Shown here piece after piece: positions 2,720 through 20,552 of a stretch of DNA of 64,000 bases. Source of the stretch: Eledone cirrhosa (lineage: Eukaryota). Position 1 is the first letter of the stretch, and each line of letters begins with the position of its first letter. The position numbers were made by a program, and so were the translations under genes. The stretch lies in the NCBI GenBank assembly GCA_964016885.1, contig OZ024745.1, positions 81,964,001 to 82,028,000 of the forward strand, in the 5' to 3' direction. The notes below the pieces were generated by a model. That model did not search any database and had not been told where the DNA came from. It saw only the letters and a program-made list of their open reading frames with translations.

Positions 2720-3372
2720 AGCCGCTCTCCAGCCATCTATTAAAAACTGTATACAGCTATGGTACGACCACACTTGGAATTCGCATCATCAGTCTGGAAC
2801 CCCTATCTTGCTCAGAACATTGACCTCCTGGAAACTGTTCAGAGACGTGCAACCAAGCGCATACCCTCCATCAGACACCTACCATACTCTGAACGCCTTG
2901 CTTCCCTGAGCATGGATTCATTGAAGCTCCAACGTCTGGCAATGGACTTGGTGAATACCCACAAAGTTATTAACCATCTCGCCAATTGCAACCCTGAGCA
3001 CTTTTTGATCTCCATGTGTCTCATACACGTGGACATGCCTACAAAATCAGAAAACAGCACAGCTCCCATGACTTTCGTAGACATTTTTTCACGCTCAGAG
3101 TTGCTGAAGCATGGAACAAACTGCCTGCGTCAGTTGTTAGCTGCCGAGACACTGCATCCTTTCAGACACTCATGCTTCCCGAAATACGCAAAACTACACC
3201 TGATGTACCCTTTCCATACACATGCACACTTGTGTGTATCATGACTCGTGCACTGTTCATTTTACTGATGTTTGTGCATTGCCCTATGTACTGTACATGC
3301 ACTTTTTGATGAGTTGTGGTGCACCTGGGCACTGTACACAATATTTCATTATTATTATTATTATTATTATTA
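2720..3372 (+). mobile_element. CR1-type LINE 3' fragment (RT C-terminus, 3' UTR, (ATT)n tail)
   Basis: VRPHLEFASSVWNPY...LETVQRRATK...YSERL...TRGHAYKI...FFTLRVAEAWNKLP with a frameshift; ends in (ATT)n. Confidence 0.9.
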
Positions 3373-8480: not shown

Positions 8481-9162
8481 AGTAGCAATAATGGCCCGTG
8501 TAAGTGGGCCATCTCTCTATATCGGCTTGTACAGGTAAGAGAAGAAGGGAGCACCCCCTCTCTCTGTGCTCCCTGGCAGAAAGGTCGCACACTTTCTACG
8601 GGGGTGTGTGTGACCCCAAAAGGCTAATAAATCGCAAAATAACAAACAAACAAACAAAAAAGGGGCAAATAAAGAAATCTATGCCCCATAAATAAATCTA
8701 TATTTCTTTTAACGACTAAAGAAAAGGGGAATGTAAATTTGTTGGAATAGCCTCATACATTGAAGTAAGCGGCATTTAGGCAGCTAAAATTGGATATCGC
8801 CCTTGTCTATTTTTCGTATAGTTCCGGCGTGAGCTATTTTCAATAAATAAATAATATAGCGGTTTGGTGTCATCGTGGTTCAGTCAGATATATTCATTTT
8901 CTGCGTAATCAAGGAACGGCACTGTCATGGTATTAGCTGTCAGAAAGAAGGTCACGTCATTCGTCAACCTTCTCAATCATTTATTTCCGTATCACCACGC
9001 GTTTATTTACGTTTATGATTTTAAAAAAAATATGGGTACCAAATAACCACGTAATTTTCGAGAGAAACGATAATATACAATCTTATTTAACATGTGCATT
9101 AAAAACTACACTAGCTGTTACAATTGTAATTAACTTGTAAGAACTTAAATGAAAATATAGGT

Positions 9163-9177
9163 GGCCCTTAAAGGGCC
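9163..9177 (-). terminator. Mirror histone-type stem-loop (one T short)
   Basis: Minus strand caacacc-GGCCCTTTAAGGGCC-acct. Confidence 0.5.
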
Positions 9178-9218
9178 GGTGTTGAACTTAAATTTGTTTT
9201 CTAACTTGTTTCAACATC

Positions 9219-9234
9219 GGCCCTTTTAAGGGCC
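9219..9234 (+). terminator. Histone-mRNA-type 3' stem-loop
   Basis: caacatc-GGCCCT-TTTA-AGGGCC-acta matches the 6-bp stem / 4-nt loop SLBP consensus; no histone CDS nearby. Confidence 0.65.
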
Positions 9235-9616
9235 ACTATATTTTCATTTAAGTTCTTACACGTTAATTACAATTGTAACAGCTAGTGTAGTTTTTAATGC
9301 ACATGTTAAATAAGATTGTATATTATCGTTTCTCTCGAAAATTACGTGGTTATTTGGTACCCATATTTTTTTTTTTAATAAGTGTATCTCATTGTAAACG
9401 TATCTTCTACTTTCACTTTTGACAGCTAATACCATGACAGTGTCCAAGGAATTATCATATCATCATCACACCATCTTATTGAACACTTACTCACTTACTT
9501 AAACATATGCTACCTATGGTCACACTGTATCACACAACAAGCTACAAGTGAGCACGCACACAAACGAATCAACACCACAACGCAATCCACTACCAACATC
9601 GACCAACAAATAATCG

Positions 9617-9651
<35 letters not shown>

Positions 9652-9653
<2 letters not shown>

Positions 9654-10124
9654 CATACGTTAAGACGGGCGTTCGGGAAAGTGAAAGTAAATTTTTTGAC
9701 AACAGTGAATTCTTTTTTTTTTTTTTGAAAGTAAAAGTTACGATACACACGCAATTGTATGGATTTCTTAATATATATATATGTGTGGGTGTGTATATAT
9801 GTGTGTACACTGTGAATTTGTTTGTTTATTTACAACAGGTCTCTATAGTGATATGGTGTTAATTAGTATTGCGTGTGTGATTATTTTTTCTTTAGATAGA
9901 CGTTAAACGATGATGATGACACAAACACATATATATATACAAACACACATATATATATACATACAGACACACATATATATACACACCCACACATATATAT
10001 ATATTAAGAAATCAATACAATTGCGTGTGTATCGTAATTTTCATTGTAAAAAAAAAAAAAAAAAAAAAAAATTCACTGTTGTCGAAAAATTTACTTTCAC
10101 TTTCCCGAATGCCCGTCTTAACGT

Positions 10125-10129
<5 letters not shown>
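9652..10129. mobile_element. Long-TIR MITE (Mutator- or Merlin-like) inserted in (TA)n
   Basis: GGCATACGTTAAGACGGGC...GCCCGTCTTAACGTATGCC, ~155-bp TIRs; flank phase is compatible with an odd-length (e.g. 9-bp) TSD. Confidence 0.8.
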
Positions 10130-10180
<51 letters not shown>

Positions 10181-10200
10181 TTGGAGCTCTGAAATAGCAA

Positions 10201-12714: not shown

Positions 12715-14069
12715 TTAATAATAAAGATAAAATGAAAATCCTATAATACGTGTTTTTTTTGTTTTTTTTGGTTATACTGACGCCATAACCAACCCCAAAT
12801 ATAACAATCTATATCTATATATAATCAGAGATGTTTGTTTGTTGGTTGGTTCCTTCACACTTCACATACAAACGAAAAGTAAGCATAGAAATGGTATAAG
12901 GGTATACCTAGGAAAGTTAATTGATATTCATTTTATAAAATCAAAGAAGAAAATGATCCCGGGTATGCTAACCAACCCAACTGCTATTTCTAGCAGGTTG
13001 GGAGACAACCATAAGGGATTCTCTCCGCGCGTCCGTTGTCAACGATGCTCGTGTTTCGCAGCCAGCATCTCCATGGATTCGAATTCTGGTTTACATACAC
13101 ACACGTGTATGTAATTATCTATATCTATATTTATATAATAATATAAAAGATTGACATTCCCGGTAAAACAAAGAATCTGGTGTTTCTGGAATATTTTTGA
13201 CTTTTTTTTTTGTCACACACATAACTGTCTCGCTTCATGCCGTAAAACCAAACAATGCATCAAATAGTCGTTTTCTCTTATGTTTATTCGGGCGTTGGCT
13301 TCAAATTATATCAAGACACACACACACACACACATATATCCGTGTGATTGTGAATATGTTGAACTGAAACTTCGATCTCTCATTCTTAATAAAAACATTG
13401 CAGCTTAAGTAAACAAAATTAACAGACAACGATTTAAATCACCTCTGTTAATACCGAATATCCAACTCAGGCAAGCAGATTGAGTGCTGAACGTATTTCA
13501 ACTGTCTCTCTGTATAATGTATGTACGCATCTATTGATGTATGTATGTATATATATATATATAAATATATATAATAATAATAGTAATAATTATTTCTACT
13601 TTTGGCACAAGGCCAGCAATATTACTGGTTCTTTATTTTATCGACCCCGTAAGGATGACAGGCAAAGTTAACCTCGAAATAAAGTACCAGTAATACACTG
13701 AGTTTTGCTGGCCTTGTGCCAAAAGTAGAAACAATTATTATATATATTTCTCTATATATATACATACATGAGTAATAATGCTTTCTTTAATGAATAATAA
13801 TAGTAATAATAATAATATATATATATATAAAATGGTCTATTTTTAGTTAGCTAGCAGAAATGAATAGAAAGTTACTATTTACCTACTTTTATAGCTTCGA
13901 ATAAGTTTAGAAAAGTAATGCACTGCAGCTCTACACGTCCAGCGTACTATATATACATTTATCTAAATAAATAGGATATGAATTGAATATTGAATAGATA
14001 TGAATTAAATACTATGGATGATCATTCGTGATAAAACTGTTTTATCAACATACAGGAATGATTTACCAG

Positions 14070-14256
<187 letters not shown>

Positions 14257-14779
14257 GAAAAGTATAGAAATTATTGTAGCAAGAAGCCAACAGTATTCCA
14301 TAATATATAAGTGACTATAGCGTCAAAATGGGAAAATAGTTAATGTAAGATGTGGGAAAAATAATTCAAACTCAATTCAAAAAGAATCAGGATATAGATT
14401 CATCCAACAGAATTTAGTGAAATCCAGGAAAAAATCAATAGAGCCTTAACTCATGATAAAATAAAGTTTAAAATACTCATCCTTCAATTTGGAAAAACTA
14501 CAAATGCTCTGTATAGTCTTGAAAAGACTATTTCACGAAAACTTTCAGTGGGGATGGTCACGGTTGGAATTCGATCCTCAGCCGAGCTCAACACGATAGC
14601 CAAAATCTCACTGATTATAATATGCCAAAAAGGGAATTTAAAATCAACATCATGCGTGATTATGAAAATAAAACGCACATGCGGAAACAGGGCTGGTGAC
14701 ATCAGAATGAAACGAATGTTTGTTTACATGAAATAACAGTCAAAAACATTCCGAAAAAAACTCTACAATAAGGAGTTCA

Positions 14780-14887
<108 letters not shown>

Positions 14888-15361
14888 AAGAGAGAGAATG
14901 TAGAGAGGTGACACACGAGTTGATATATATATATATACATATATACATATATATATAAAAACAGTAAAAAAGAAAAAGACAGTAGAAAATGCTAAAGATA
15001 TTTTCTCTCAGAATAACATCAAAACATTTATTTACCAAATAGGAATTTCCGCATTATTTGTACCGGTTTCAGCTTGTACGCTTTTTCACACGATGGAAGT
15101 GTATAATGCAATTAAATTGCATATTAATAAGAACAATAAGAATATGGGGTAAGAAATTGTTTTTACATACATATTTATGGAGAAAAGTTCACATTTTTGT
15201 CTGTAGCTTTCTTTCTTTCTCTTTTAGTGCTGACCTTAGCCGTGTCACCACCAAAAGTGGTAGAACTGATCTACATCATTGGATGCAAACGAAGTCGCAG
15301 GTTTTATATCAAAGTGACCTTCTCCTAGAGAGATGTCTTAAAGAAGACTAGGAGTCTCTCG

Positions 15362-17935: not shown

Positions 17936-19290
17936 TTAATAATAAAGATAAAATGAAAATCCTATAATACGTGTTTTTTTTGTTTTTTTTGGTTATACTG
18001 ACGCCATAACCAACCCCAAATATAACAATCTATATCTATATATAATCAGAGATGTTTGTTTGTTGGTTGGTTCCTTCACACTTCACATACAAACGAAAAG
18101 TAAGCATAGAAATGGTATAAGGGTATACCTAGGAAAGTTAATTGATATTCATTTTATAAAATCAAAGAAGAAAATGATCCCGGGTATGCTAACCAACCCA
18201 ACTGCTATTTCTAGCAGGTTGGGAGACAACCATAAGGGATTCTCTCCGCGCGTCCGTTGTCAACGATGCTCGTGTTTCGCAGCCAGCATCTCCATGGATT
18301 CGAATTCTGGTTTACATACACACACGTGTATGTAATTATCTATATCTATATTTATATAATAATATAAAAGATTGACATTCCCGGTAAAACAAAGAATCTG
18401 GTGTTTCTGGAATATTTTTGACTTTTTTTTTTGTCACACACATAACTGTCTCGCTTCATGCCGTAAAACCAAACAATGCATCAAATAGTCGTTTTCTCTT
18501 ATGTTTATTCGGGCGTTGGCTTCAAATTATATCAAGACACACACACACACACACATATATCCGTGTGATTGTGAATATGTTGAACTGAAACTTCGATCTC
18601 TCATTCTTAATAAAAACATTGCAGCTTAAGTAAACAAAATTAACAGACAACGATTTAAATCACCTCTGTTAATACCGAATATCCAACTCAGGCAAGCAGA
18701 TTGAGTGCTGAACGTATTTCAACTGTCTCTCTGTATAATGTATGTACGCATCTATTGATGTATGTATGTATATATATATATATAAATATATATAATAATA
18801 ATAGTAATAATTATTTCTACTTTTGGCACAAGGCCAGCAATATTACTGGTTCTTTATTTTATCGACCCCGTAAGGATGACAGGCAAAGTTAACCTCGAAA
18901 TAAAGTACCAGTAATACACTGAGTTTTGCTGGCCTTGTGCCAAAAGTAGAAACAATTATTATATATATTTCTCTATATATATACATACATGAGTAATAAT
19001 GCTTTCTTTAATGAATAATAATAGTAATAATAATAATATATATATATATAAAATGGTCTATTTTTAGTTAGCTAGCAGAAATGAATAGAAAGTTACTATT
19101 TACCTACTTTTATAGCTTCGAATAAGTTTAGAAAAGTAATGCACTGCAGCTCTACACGTCCAGCGTACTATATATACATTTATCTAAATAAATAGGATAT
19201 GAATTGAATATTGAATAGATATGAATTAAATACTATGGATGATCATTCGTGATAAAACTGTTTTATCAACATACAGGAATGATTTACCAG

Positions 19291-19449
<159 letters not shown>

Positions 19450-19972
19450 GAAAAGTATAGAAATTATTGTAGCAAGAAGCCAACAGTATTCCATAATATA
19501 TAAGTGACTATAGCGTCAAAATGGGAAAATAGTTAATGTAAGATGTGGGAAAAATAATTCAAACTCAATTCAAAAAGAATCAGGATATAGATTCATCCAA
19601 CAGAATTTAGTGAAATCCAGGAAAAAATCAATAGAGCCTTAACTCATGATAAAATAAAGTTTAAAATACTCATCCTTCAATTTGGAAAAACTACAAATGC
19701 TCTGTATAGTCTTGAAAAGACTATTTCACGAAAACTTTCAGTGGGGATGGTCACGGTTGGAATTCGATCCTCAGCCGAGCTCAACACGATAGCCAAAATC
19801 TCACTGATTATAATATGCCAAAAAGGGAATTTAAAATCAACATCATGCGTGATTATGAAAATAAAACGCACATGCGGAAACAGGGCTGGTGACATCAGAA
19901 TGAAACGAATGTTTGTTTACATGAAATAACAGTCAAAAACATTCCGAAAAAAACTCTACAATAAGGAGTTCA

Positions 19973-20088
<116 letters not shown>

Positions 20089-20552
20089 ATGTAGAGAGGT
20101 GACACACGAGTTGATATATATATATATACATATATACATATATATATAAAAACAGTAAAAAAGAAAAAGACAGTAGAAAATGCTAAAGATATTTTCTCTC
20201 AGAATAACATCAAAACATTTATTTACCAAATAGGAATTTCCGCATTATTTGTACCGGTTTCAGCTTGTACGCTTTTTCACACGATGGAAGTGTATAATGC
20301 AATTAAATTGCATATTAATAAGAACAATAAGAATATGGGGTAAGAAATTGTTTTTACATACATATTTATGGAGAAAAGTTCACATTTTTGTCTGTAGCTT
20401 TCTTTCTTTCTCTTTTAGTGCTGACCTTAGCCGTGTCACCACCAAAAGTGGTAGAACTGATCTACATCATTGGATGCAAACGAAGTCGCAGGTTTTATAT
20501 CAAAGTGACCTTCTCCTAGAGAGATGTCTTAAAGAAGACTAGGAGTCTCTCG

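Follow-up and report, generated by a model that had tools for sequence, protein, structure and literature searches.

Within the 64,000-nucleotide stretch of DNA analysed here (the window), positions 8918–9444 hold a fold-back DNA transposon with GG-terminal inverted ends of 26–28 nt. The element is almost certainly a non-autonomous member of the Merlin superfamily, a fold-back MITE in which each arm joins a Merlin end to sequence captured from the 3′ region of a histone H4 gene of the host. We give an even chance to the full explanation, in which the captured H4 sequence also acts as an outward-facing, histone-type RNA 3′-end signal.

Structure of the element

The terminal inverted repeats of the element (8918–8945 and 9417–9444) begin GGCACTGTCATGGTATTAGCTGTCAGAA and agree at 96% over 26 nt. 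Inside them lie two inner arms (9023–9186 and 9210–9373) of 164 nt that are 96% complementary, and 41 nt separate the two outward-facing stem-loops (Table 1). We found no ORF and no histone CDS within the element. A first-pass annotation had described a DNA transposon with outward-pointing histone-type stem-loops in both arms, near-identical 8-bp flanks, a one-base-shorter minus-strand stem-loop at 9163–9177, a spacing of about 40 bp and no histone CDS, and each of these features is present where it was placed. The flanks, CAAGGAAC (8910–8917) and CAAGGAAT (9445–9452), agree at 7/8 bases. The same annotation had pointed to a TAA just before each stem; these triplets do lie 10–14 nt upstream of the stems, and they terminate no ORF and are incidental. 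The surroundings of this copy are repeat-rich, with no evident gene near.

Three lesions, namely a 3-nt loop in the left stem-loop, the loss of one C in the right downstream element and a 94-bp deletion, suggest that the window copy is an old, damaged derivative.

Table 1. Features of the fold-back element and its flanks, in window positions
Feature	Position	Strand	Basis or remark
Left target-site duplication, CAAGGAAC	8910..8917	.	7/8 match to 9445–9452; other copies 7/8 or 8/8
Left terminal inverted repeat, GG start (GGCACTGTCATGGTATTAGCTGTCAGAA)	8918..8945	+	Exact 26-mer found 66 times in the genome
Left-arm Merlin subterminal region (GAAGGTCACGTCATTCGTCAAC...TTTATTTCCGTATCACCACGCG...)	8946..9031	+	Aligns to family; motifs common to the ends of L062, L058 and L066 (transposase-bearing)
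Left-arm copy of H4 3′ flank	9032..9162	-	Inverted repeat of right arm; homologous to L050 H4 flank
Presumptive downstream element, ACCTATATTTTCATTTAAGTT	9162-9142	-	Inside left-arm H4 flank copy; AAGT core
Histone-type stem-loop, 6-bp stem, 3-nt loop	9163..9177	-	RF00032 29.9 bits; local fold -11.0 kcal/mol
CAACACC, H4 3′ UTR remnant 5′ of stem	9178..9184	-	Identical to the 7 nt preceding the stem in L050 H4
Central loop, internal Merlin motif remnant (AACTTAAATTTGTTTTCTAA...)	9185..9211	.	14 nt shorter than in ~620-bp copies
CAACATC, H4 3′ UTR remnant (family form CAACACC)	9212..9218	+	Family alignment, H4 comparison
Histone-type stem-loop GGCCCT/TTTA/AGGGCC (GGCCCTTTTAAGGGCC)	9219..9234	+	RF00032 34.3 bits; local fold -11.5 kcal/mol
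Presumptive histone downstream element, ACTATATTTTCATTTAAGTTCTTA	9235..9258	+	One C lost relative to family ACCTAT; AAGT at 9250–9253
Remaining captured H4 3′ flank, right arm	9259..9405	+	Aligns to L050 2600–2860, 3′ of the intact H4 ORF
Truncated Merlin end, right arm (terminal repeat 9417–9444)	9406..9444	-	~94 bp of subterminal sequence deleted relative to ~620-bp copies
Right target-site duplication, CAAGGAAT	9445..9452	.	7/8 match to 8910–8917

Membership in the Merlin superfamily

Merlin transposons are related to the bacterial elements IS1016/IS1595 (Feschotte 2004, as summarised in the available text of PMC8101967), and the same text gives them TIRs of 24–462 bp with a conserved terminal 5′-GG-3′. 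We further applied as membership criteria an 8- or 9-bp target-site duplication and the presence of DDE_Tnp_IS1595 in autonomous members. The sequence GGCACTGTCATGG... stands at both ends of the window element, over 26–28 nt, and is found likewise in 29/30 family loci. Both ends were located in six further copies, five of which are flanked, at different sites, by 8-bp duplications matching at 8/8 (L122, L123) or 7/8 (L118, L119, L120) positions; AATAATTG forms a perfect 8/8 duplication in one family copy. With lengths of 527–720 bp, no ORF, TIRs, target duplications and multiple dispersed copies, the elements of this type have the attributes of MITEs.

The window-type end occurs in the genome as 66 exact 26-mers, which by our reading of the listed places represent roughly 15–20 independent insertion sites. 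Among the typed copies of the 30 best loci, 27/29 trace to two insertion sites via segmental or tandem duplication. Clustered copies on C18, C28 and C370 have their flanks in common and stem from segmental or tandem duplication. A histone array was considered for these clusters and rejected: a 50-kb stretch contains LINE/RT ORFs along with satellites, and histone genes are absent from it.

A transposase-bearing family is a candidate for mobilising the window MITE, with which it has in common the end core TATTAGCTGTCAG, the subterminal motifs, the loop motif and the H4 module. In L058 and L062 the central-loop motif immediately precedes the sense stem-loop, and it is present in L066 too, which has no stem-loop. 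Positions 7–13 of the ends differ between the window MITE and the transposase family (GTCATGG versus ACAACGC), and none of the 30 loci holds a transposase copy with exactly the ends of the window element.

Origin of the arms in a histone H4 gene

Judged by sequence homology, the stem-loop is copied from a histone H4 gene and did not evolve independently. At L050, CAACACC and the stem-loop come after an intact H4 ORF (2172–2483), and the flank beyond them aligns to the entire inner arm of the MITE; the match between a MITE arm and the 3′ flank of one H4 gene extends over ~330 nt. One arm of L117, and of L117 only, retains 26 H4 coding bases, the TAA and a 34-nt 3′ UTR. Several H4 paralogues align through +26 to +52 past the stem, and this alignment across paralogues indicates that the module belongs to H4.

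In the transposase-bearing element the sole similarity to histone loci is the module itself (64 nt at 95%), with no similarity found to H4 promoter or coding sequence. L066, which belongs to a sister lineage and is 86% identical to the query, has the same motifs and a clean gap exactly at the 72-nt module. At the gathering score, RF00032 gave no match in L083/L104 (78%) or in 19 loci of distant Merlin families; the scan of other Merlin lineages covered 20 loci.

Quality of the stem-loops and the downstream element

The first-pass annotation had proposed a check against the Rfam Histone3 model (RF00032). The right copy (9214–9258, + strand) scores 34.3 bits (E = 1.4e-7), which reaches the gathering score of 34; the left copy (9139–9182, − strand) falls below it, at 29.9 bits (E = 6.4e-6). 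The loop at 9163–9177 has lost one U and is 3 nt long, whereas all nine of the remaining aligned copies keep a loop of 4 nt. Undamaged transposon stem-loops score 37.0 and 34.1 bits, and the range for transposon copies is 34–37 bits, compared with 36–42 for true histone genes. The only difference between the stem-loop at 9219–9234 and that of H4 is an A in place of C at the fourth loop position, and the UUUA loop is found in a genuine H3 gene too (L048). On the 5′ side of the stem, the transposase-bearing family has AATTT, where real histone genes have CACC or an A-rich flank.

The 16-mer, with up to two mismatches allowed, has an expectation of 0.01 in the shuffled window. A genome-wide count of the exact 18-mer gave 694, with none for its reversed control, compared with 67 histone-fold matches.

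The first-pass annotation had seen no clear U7-type downstream element. In the family form, however, the 22 nt 3′ of the stem are the same as those of this genome's H4 genes, with an AAGT core at +17, and AAGT starts 13–20 nt past the stem in 17 of the 19 gene-adjacent histone stem-loops. A genome search for U7 snRNA with Rfam RF00066 gave no match, in a run that scored just 65 of 585,730 candidates and in which the control was unmatched too, which makes the result uninformative. A U7 pattern combining ACTT with an Sm-site motif had 71 matches, versus 128 in the control, and one candidate (C4:221706898) was rejected for having no U7 match and no 3′ hairpin. As these searches did not find a U7 snRNA, pairing with the downstream element is argued solely from its identity to H4.

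Transposase-bearing relatives

Stem-loop pairs spaced 1.25–1.8 kb apart enclose an ORF with the Pfam domain DDE_Tnp_IS1595 (PF12762), detected in L036, L040, L056 and L058 with E values of 2e-19 to 4e-18. A zinc-ribbon match in the transposase (PF12760) is sub-threshold, at 13.7 bits versus 25.4. Intact transposase ORFs of 300–302 aa are present in L056, L058 and L064, in a single frame with no sign of an intron. The transposase-bearing copies, like the window element, contain no histone CDS. Homologues occur in Octopus bimaculoides and O. sinensis (P0001–P0006). A divergent histone pair was considered for the interval between stem-loops 1.25 kb apart and rejected, as the interval encodes the transposase. 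The stem-loop region of L058 has very high depth in four contig runs of undefined kind, an observation that is uninformative on expression.

The layout of the 29 transposase copies is regular. A sense module lies downstream of the gene in 27/29 and an antisense module upstream in 24/29; both are present in 23/29, and the wrong orientation was seen in none. The sense stem-loop stands about 138 nt past the transposase stop, with a distance of 116–139 nt in 21/29 copies. Longer members, which the first-pass annotation had proposed to look for, do exist, with an ORF that stops upstream of a stem-loop. Of the 27 copies whose stem-loop lies downstream, 24 have a poly(A)-signal hexamer between stop and stem-loop; in most it is AATAAA at +72, with T/GT-rich sequence after it. 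Given an AATAAA upstream of the stem-loop, the transposase mRNA could be polyadenylated before the stem-loop is reached.

The annotation had also suggested examining loop conservation across copies. When the 29 copies are anchored at the ORF end, mismatch in the stem-loop plus downstream element is 0.21–0.22, versus 0.16 upstream. These values show no extra conservation, the stem-loop being no better kept than its surroundings.

Possible role and alternative explanations

A stem-loop plus downstream element is enough for histone-type processing of heterologous transcripts, and histone-type regulation works with the stem-loop at most a few hundred nt from the stop codon. In a Pol II transcript exiting through an arm, the stem-loop would be bound by SLBP and the downstream element by U7 snRNP. 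Cleavage would fall 3–5 nt past the stem (GGGCC, …GGGCCACC/A), and the transcript would have no poly(A) tail. In autonomous copies, transposase mRNA would join the histone-mRNA regime, with expression in S phase and storage as oocyte message; coupling to replication would be to the advantage of a cut-and-paste element, whose copy number rises through moves made while DNA is being replicated. We put the chances that the captured module has a histone-type RNA-processing role of this kind at slightly under even.

Nearly as plausible, though again short of an even chance, is that the module is a neutral passenger: an H4 3′ fragment was captured once by Merlin, by gap repair or template switch as in Pack-TIRs, was mirrored into both arms and has since merely been carried. 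The transposase mRNA would then be polyadenylated at its own upstream signal, and the stem-loops would be useless to the element. Several observations are in line with such a history. The H4 flank in the MITE arms (~330 nt) and the coding bases in one copy reach far beyond the signal module, and ~200 nt of the H4 flank in the MITE is without known signal, as expected of unselected cargo. The AATAAA at +72 in most copies and the lack of excess conservation of the stem-loop among copies point the same way. Other Merlin families of this genome, which have no stem-loop, are likewise rich in open frames. In animals, TIR transposons are documented to pick up pieces of host sequence (PMC8277862 and PMC2572040, in their available text).

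Other observations speak against a passenger. Of the at least 390 nt captured, the stem-loop and another 56 nt are precisely what the transposase lineage has retained, and it has done so in both arms. The sense module lies at a narrow range of distances past the stop in most copies (21/29, as above). The kept piece has the very sequence of a functional H4 signal, and transcripts that do reach the stem-loop should therefore be substrates. The stem-loop-bearing lineage also makes up 28 of the 30 best transposase loci; as the capture is a single evolutionary event, this success carries no statistical weight.

It is improbable that the element serves instead as a source of hairpin RNA, with read-through giving a ~250-bp dsRNA as input to small-RNA or RNA-editing pathways and with no part played by the stem-loops. 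Fold-back MITEs are a known theme as sources of hairpin RNA. The entire 527-nt element is indeed predicted to fold into a single hairpin (−320.5 kcal/mol; z = −38 versus shuffles); the window copy, if transcribed, would fold mostly into this one long hairpin, and the fold-back would compete with the local stem-loop. However, a hairpin-RNA source leaves unexplained both the H4 3′ origin of the arms and the layout of the transposase copies, whose arms are 1.25 kb apart, and the repeat-rich setting of the window copy, away from any evident gene, also counts against it.

The first-pass annotation had suggested that an autonomous parent may have two divergent genes, each with a histone-type 3′ end. 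Both stem-loops do point away from the centre, and a spacing of 1.25–1.8 kb is seen in many pairs. Yet 29/29 anchored copies have a single transposase gene, confined to one strand; upstream of this gene the second stem-loop stands in antisense, and no second ORF of at least 150 aa was found between the stem-loops. The proposal was partly right, as there is one gene, not two, a Merlin/IS1595 transposase with only its 3′ stem-loop in sense, and a two-gene parent is very improbable. A chance or DNA-level palindrome, such as a transposase-binding or cruciform site that resembles a histone stem-loop, would fit the near-perfect 16-mer palindrome at the inner end of each arm, but we give it next to no credence, as the H4 homology spans coding bases, 3′ UTR, stem-loop and 330 nt beyond, and the sister lineage L066 transposed without the 16-mer, with both ends intact.

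Significance

Replication-dependent histone mRNAs are treated as the sole cellular mRNA class in which a stem-loop takes the place of the poly(A) tail. With an intact signal, identical to that of the host, behind a transposase gene, the borrowing of the histone pathway by a selfish element becomes concretely testable. If it does so, transposase supply would be tied to DNA replication and maternal mRNA storage, the time when cut-and-paste elements gain most. Even with no benefit to the transposon, the ~700 copies amount to a natural experiment on stem-loop function outside histone loci, and they also probe the truncation of host transcripts and the titration of SLBP or U7.

A broader scenario can be imagined, which we regard as unlikely: a still-active Merlin of an octopus-type genome would have hijacked the H4 module, and its transposase mRNA would be non-polyadenylated, SLBP-bound and coupled to S phase and the oocyte. 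If true, use of the U7/SLBP pathway would be a first both for selfish elements and for gene families other than histones; the ~700 dispersed stem-loops would scatter histone-type cleavage sites across host transcription units, and the same copies would compete for SLBP and U7. In any event, this is an unusually clean, high-copy capture of a regulatory signal by an animal TIR transposon, with donor, intermediates and derivatives in one genome.

Comparison with known systems

The element resembles other Merlin transposons, as described in the available text of PMC8101967, in its GG ends, its 8-bp duplications, the single DDE_Tnp_IS1595 transposase of its full-length relatives and the internal tandem repeats of some copies. 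It differs in having a captured H4 3′-end module in its arms, and in the window the copy is a fold-back derivative with no coding capacity. The available text of that survey contains none of the words histone, stem-loop and polyadenylation. More widely, we found no report of a transposon with a histone stem-loop in literature outside subscription journals and Repbase reports, and word searches for one returned nothing in the available text of PMC8101967, PMC8277862 and bioRxiv 10.64898/2026.10.14.759114.

A second parallel is with Pack-TIR and Pack-MULE elements, TIR transposons that carry a host gene fragment and whose target duplications show that the chimera moved. The present element has a captured H4 segment inside its ends and 8-bp duplications, and the parental-type H4 ORF at L050 is intact. 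As given in the available text of PMC8277862 and PMC2572040, Turmoil-1 of C. elegans has gene fragments in both inverted repeats, and the Merlin element likewise carries its captured fragments within inverted repeats. Unlike the Pack-TIRs described there, the element captured an RNA 3′-processing signal and not coding sequence, and its module is also found, in sense, behind the transposase gene of transposase-bearing elements. It has hundreds of copies, whereas multicopy Pack-TIRs are described as rare, at 1.4% (PMC8277862); Merlin is unmentioned in the available text of that study.

Human HERV1/LTR12 elements have HDE-like motifs bound by U7 snRNA, according to the available text of bioRxiv 10.1101/2023.08.25.554787, and are thus also a repeat family that matches part of the histone 3′-processing signal. 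In that account they have the U7-complementary motif alone, with no stem-loop and with descent from a histone gene unshown, and the reported effect is transcriptional repression via NF-Y, not cleavage.

A further counterpart is the replication-dependent histone mRNA 3′ end itself (RF00032), with which the element has in common a 6-bp stem, a U-rich loop of 4 nt, ACC on the 3′ side, an H4-identical downstream element and descent from an H4 gene. The difference lies in the setting, which here is ~700 dispersed transposon copies with no preceding histone gene and with processing that is putative. The stem-loop in the window is a histone stem-loop by descent and not by its present context.

Structure of the window element

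The fold-back transposon described in the first-pass annotation is borne out, as are its outward-pointing stem-loops at the inner arm ends (41 nt apart, where ~40 bp had been noted), the one-base-shorter left copy, and the lack of any histone coding sequence within the element. Each arm ends internally in a GC-rich hairpin, and the chance expectation of the stem-loop motif, from the shuffled window, is 0.01 occurrences. Against the Rfam Histone3 model (RF00032, gathering score 34 bits), the right stem-loop passes and the left falls short. TAA triplets do lie 5′ of the stems, as had been noted, but they terminate no ORF.

Features of the fold-back element in the window
Feature	Position	Strand	Details
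Fold-back element	8918-9444		527 bp
Terminal inverted repeats	8918-8945 and 9417-9444		26 nt, 96%
Inner arms	9023-9186 and 9210-9373		164 nt, 96%
Flanks			CAAGGAAC and CAAGGAAT
Stem-loop, right arm	9219-9234	+	GGCCCTTTTAAGGGCC; RF00032 34.3 bits, E 1.4e-7
Stem-loop, left arm	9163-9177	-	3-nt loop; RF00032 29.9 bits, E 6.4e-6

Compared with the usual ~620-bp copies of the family, the window copy has lost ~94 bp from its right arm and 14 nt from the loop; a U has also gone from the loop of the left stem-loop, and a C from the sequence following the right stem. Folded as a whole, the element is predicted to form a single long hairpin (-320.5 kcal/mol, z = -38) that would be in competition with the local stem-loop (predicted -11.5 kcal/mol). 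Repeats abound in the surroundings, and no exon is evident within 10 kb. Elsewhere in the window are a reverse-transcriptase-like ORF fragment of a retroelement (2744-3244; KLYTAMVRPHLEFASSVWNP...) and a direct duplication of ~5.2 kb (12731-15351 and 17952-20542), three ORF translations of which are identical between copies. Sub-threshold matches to mir-297, mir-1277 and similar models at (TA)n/(TG)n tracts (9599-9668, 9932-10002, 10109-10187) were rejected as low-complexity artefacts.

A Merlin family with transposase-bearing relatives

A similarity search of the 3.0-Gb Eledone genome with the window element listed 125 matches, with 40 of 761 candidates scored. Both ends could be typed in 29 of 30 fetched loci, and 27 of these copies carry flanks of just two ancestral insertion sites: site A in 8 (some with a perfect AATAATTG duplication), site B in 14, and recombinant A/B flanks in 5. 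All 27 belong to large tandem or segmental repeats (C18, C28, C370, C1636); most close copies are not independent insertions. Independent transposition of the family is clear from further loci with their own 8-bp duplications, found in five of the six (among eight additional loci fetched) that had both ends, with matches of 8/8 in L122 and L123 and 7/8 in L118, L119 and L120. Exact matches to the end 26-mer number 66 in the genome. The C28 and C18 regions (L002-L035) are large tandem/segmental arrays with one MITE per repeat, in which copies combine the two ancestral flank types recombinantly. On C28 (124.69-126.45 Mb), the MITE-type stem-loop 25-mer is present ~47 times on the same strand at spacings of 32-48 kb; on C18 (4.9-12.6 Mb), a MITE copy turns up every 16-18 kb or more within LINE-rich units.

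The exact 18-mer GGCCCTTTTAAGGGCCAC occurs 694 times in the genome (361 forward, 333 reverse), compared to 0 for the reversed control, and many occurrences form minus/plus pairs separated by 1.25-1.8 kb. The interval between such pairs holds one ORF with the Pfam domain DDE_Tnp_IS1595 (PF12762; E 4e-18 to 2e-19). A genome search with the transposase protein listed 153 matches (149 of 714 candidates scored), including intact frames of 300-302 aa in L056, L058 and L064; among named proteins, uncharacterised ISXO2-like transposases of Octopus bimaculoides and O. sinensis come nearest (73-85% identity). The Merlin superfamily is defined by inverted repeats with terminal GG, by 8-bp duplications and by this domain (PMC8101967), and the element's family has all three. 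Given its GG ends and 8-bp duplications, and DDE_Tnp_IS1595 in its relatives, the window element is a non-autonomous Merlin derivative (MITE). At positions 7-13 its ends depart from those of the transposase-bearing family.

Some transposase-bearing copies are compact, with ordinary ends (e.g. L062). Others (L058 at 300-1060; also L057, L063, L065, L074, L078, L081, L084) carry an array of ~150-bp tandem repeats left of a head-to-head palindrome of two end-like sequences (ACAGTTCATGGTATTAGCTGTCAG). Each arm also has a truncated second stem-loop (GGCCCTTTTAAG) adjoining a (CT)n tract (L058 2480-2512; L062 1000-1012 and 2420-2440), suggesting that the palindrome was a seed for rearrangements.

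Origin of the module in histone H4

A Pfam histone search of the genome gave 67 matches. In the 12 loci fetched, a stem-loop (36-42 bits, RF00032) follows each H3 and H4 ORF. H4 genes read ...CACC GGCCCTTTTCAGGGCC ACCTATATTTTCATTTAAGT..., and the transposon GGCCCTTTTAAGGGCC ACCTATATTTTCATTTAAGT...; stem-loop and next 22 nt are identical except at loop position 4. Downstream of the H4 gene at L050 (ORF 2172-2483) come CAACACC, the stem-loop and then a flank; alignment with the window-type MITE takes in its complete inner arm, to about +330, and stops just before the Merlin terminal region. At L117, one arm even retains the last 26 H4 coding bases (one synonymous change), the TAA and the 34-nt 3′ UTR ahead of stem-loop and flank. 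In other H4 paralogues, the alignment to L050 extends through +26 to +52; the module is thus H4's own, and the transposon's version a copy of it. These alignments indicate that the transposon's stem-loop derives from a histone H4 gene. Merlin copies with stem-loops are also present no more than 1-2 kb from real H3/H4 genes (L051 100-300, L046 2130-2240), so that counting stem-loops around histone clusters picks up both genuine signals and those carried by transposons.

The transposase-bearing family has kept just the stem-loop plus 56 nt (72 nt total), with no histone-locus similarity elsewhere in the element. A sister copy, L066 (86% identity to the protein query, both ends present), has the surrounding motifs of L058/L062 directly joined where their module sits, and RF00032 has no match at gathering score in L083/L104 (78%) or in 19 loci of distant Merlin families. 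Capture thus took place once, fairly recently, in one lineage.

The first-pass annotation saw no purine-rich downstream element. In this genome, AAGT starts 13-20 nt after the stem in 17 of the 19 stem-loops directly following an H3 or H4 ORF (at 16-17 nt in 15 of them) and at 17 nt in the transposon. This is where a U7-binding element is expected, making AAGT a candidate downstream element; as the U7 gene was not located, the argument rests on H4 identity rather than computed pairing.

A histone-type 3′ end or a passenger?

We anchored 29 transposase copies on the ORF end. The module lies in sense 3′ of the stop in 27 (+98 to +661; 21 of these at +116 to +139) and in antisense 5′ of the gene in 24, with both present in 23; none has an opposite-orientation module downstream, and three (L071, L072, L075) carry a further, sense-oriented module 5′ of the gene. 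Hence each element has one gene, not the two divergent ones proposed earlier, although an ORF does precede the stem-loop; the second stem-loop is a mirror copy in the subterminal inverted repeat. The initial observation is thus confirmed and its interpretation partly supported.

On sequence evidence, the element's identity, origin and placement are established, and its signal is sequence-identical to the working H4 signal. SLBP and U7 snRNP would bind a transcript that leaves the element via an arm, and cleavage would follow immediately 3′ of the stem. In autonomous copies, a ~1.2-kb, single-frame, apparently intronless transposase mRNA would gain a histone-type end 138 nt after the stop, and with it replication-coupled, maternally stored expression. 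We put such a processing role at slightly under an even chance. The H4 fragment may instead be simply carried along, a reading that we rate about as likely. Of the 27 stem-loops found downstream of the gene, 24 are separated from the stop by an AATAAA or ATTAAA, usually at +72 and trailed by T/GT-rich sequence, making polyadenylation upstream of the stem-loop quite possible. Nor is the module better conserved among copies than its surroundings (mismatch 0.21-0.22 versus 0.16 upstream), as expected under neutral decay after insertion; the conservation check thus lends function no support. Moreover, the MITE includes much H4 flank with no known function, and many open frames also occur in Merlin families lacking the stem-loop. 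For the window copy itself, a histone-type function is less likely still, given its sub-threshold left stem-loop, the base missing from the right stem-loop's ACC flank, the competing hairpin, and its repeat-rich location with no evident exon nearby.

Relation to known systems

By descent and model score, but not by present context, the transposon stem-loop belongs to the histone 3′ class. We found no report of a transposon carrying one in the literature searched, which did not extend to Repbase. The family lends itself to a well-defined test of whether the histone mRNA pathway serves selfish DNA. In human LTR12 elements, U7-complementary motifs take part in transcriptional repression and come without a stem-loop (bioRxiv 10.1101/2023.08.25.554787). 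Pack-TIR or transduplicating elements (PMC8277862), Turmoil-1 among them (PMC2572040), resemble the Merlin family in holding a captured host fragment in a TIR transposon. Unlike in those, the captured piece here is an RNA-processing signal, is very numerous, and also occurs in transposase-bearing elements, in sense behind the gene.
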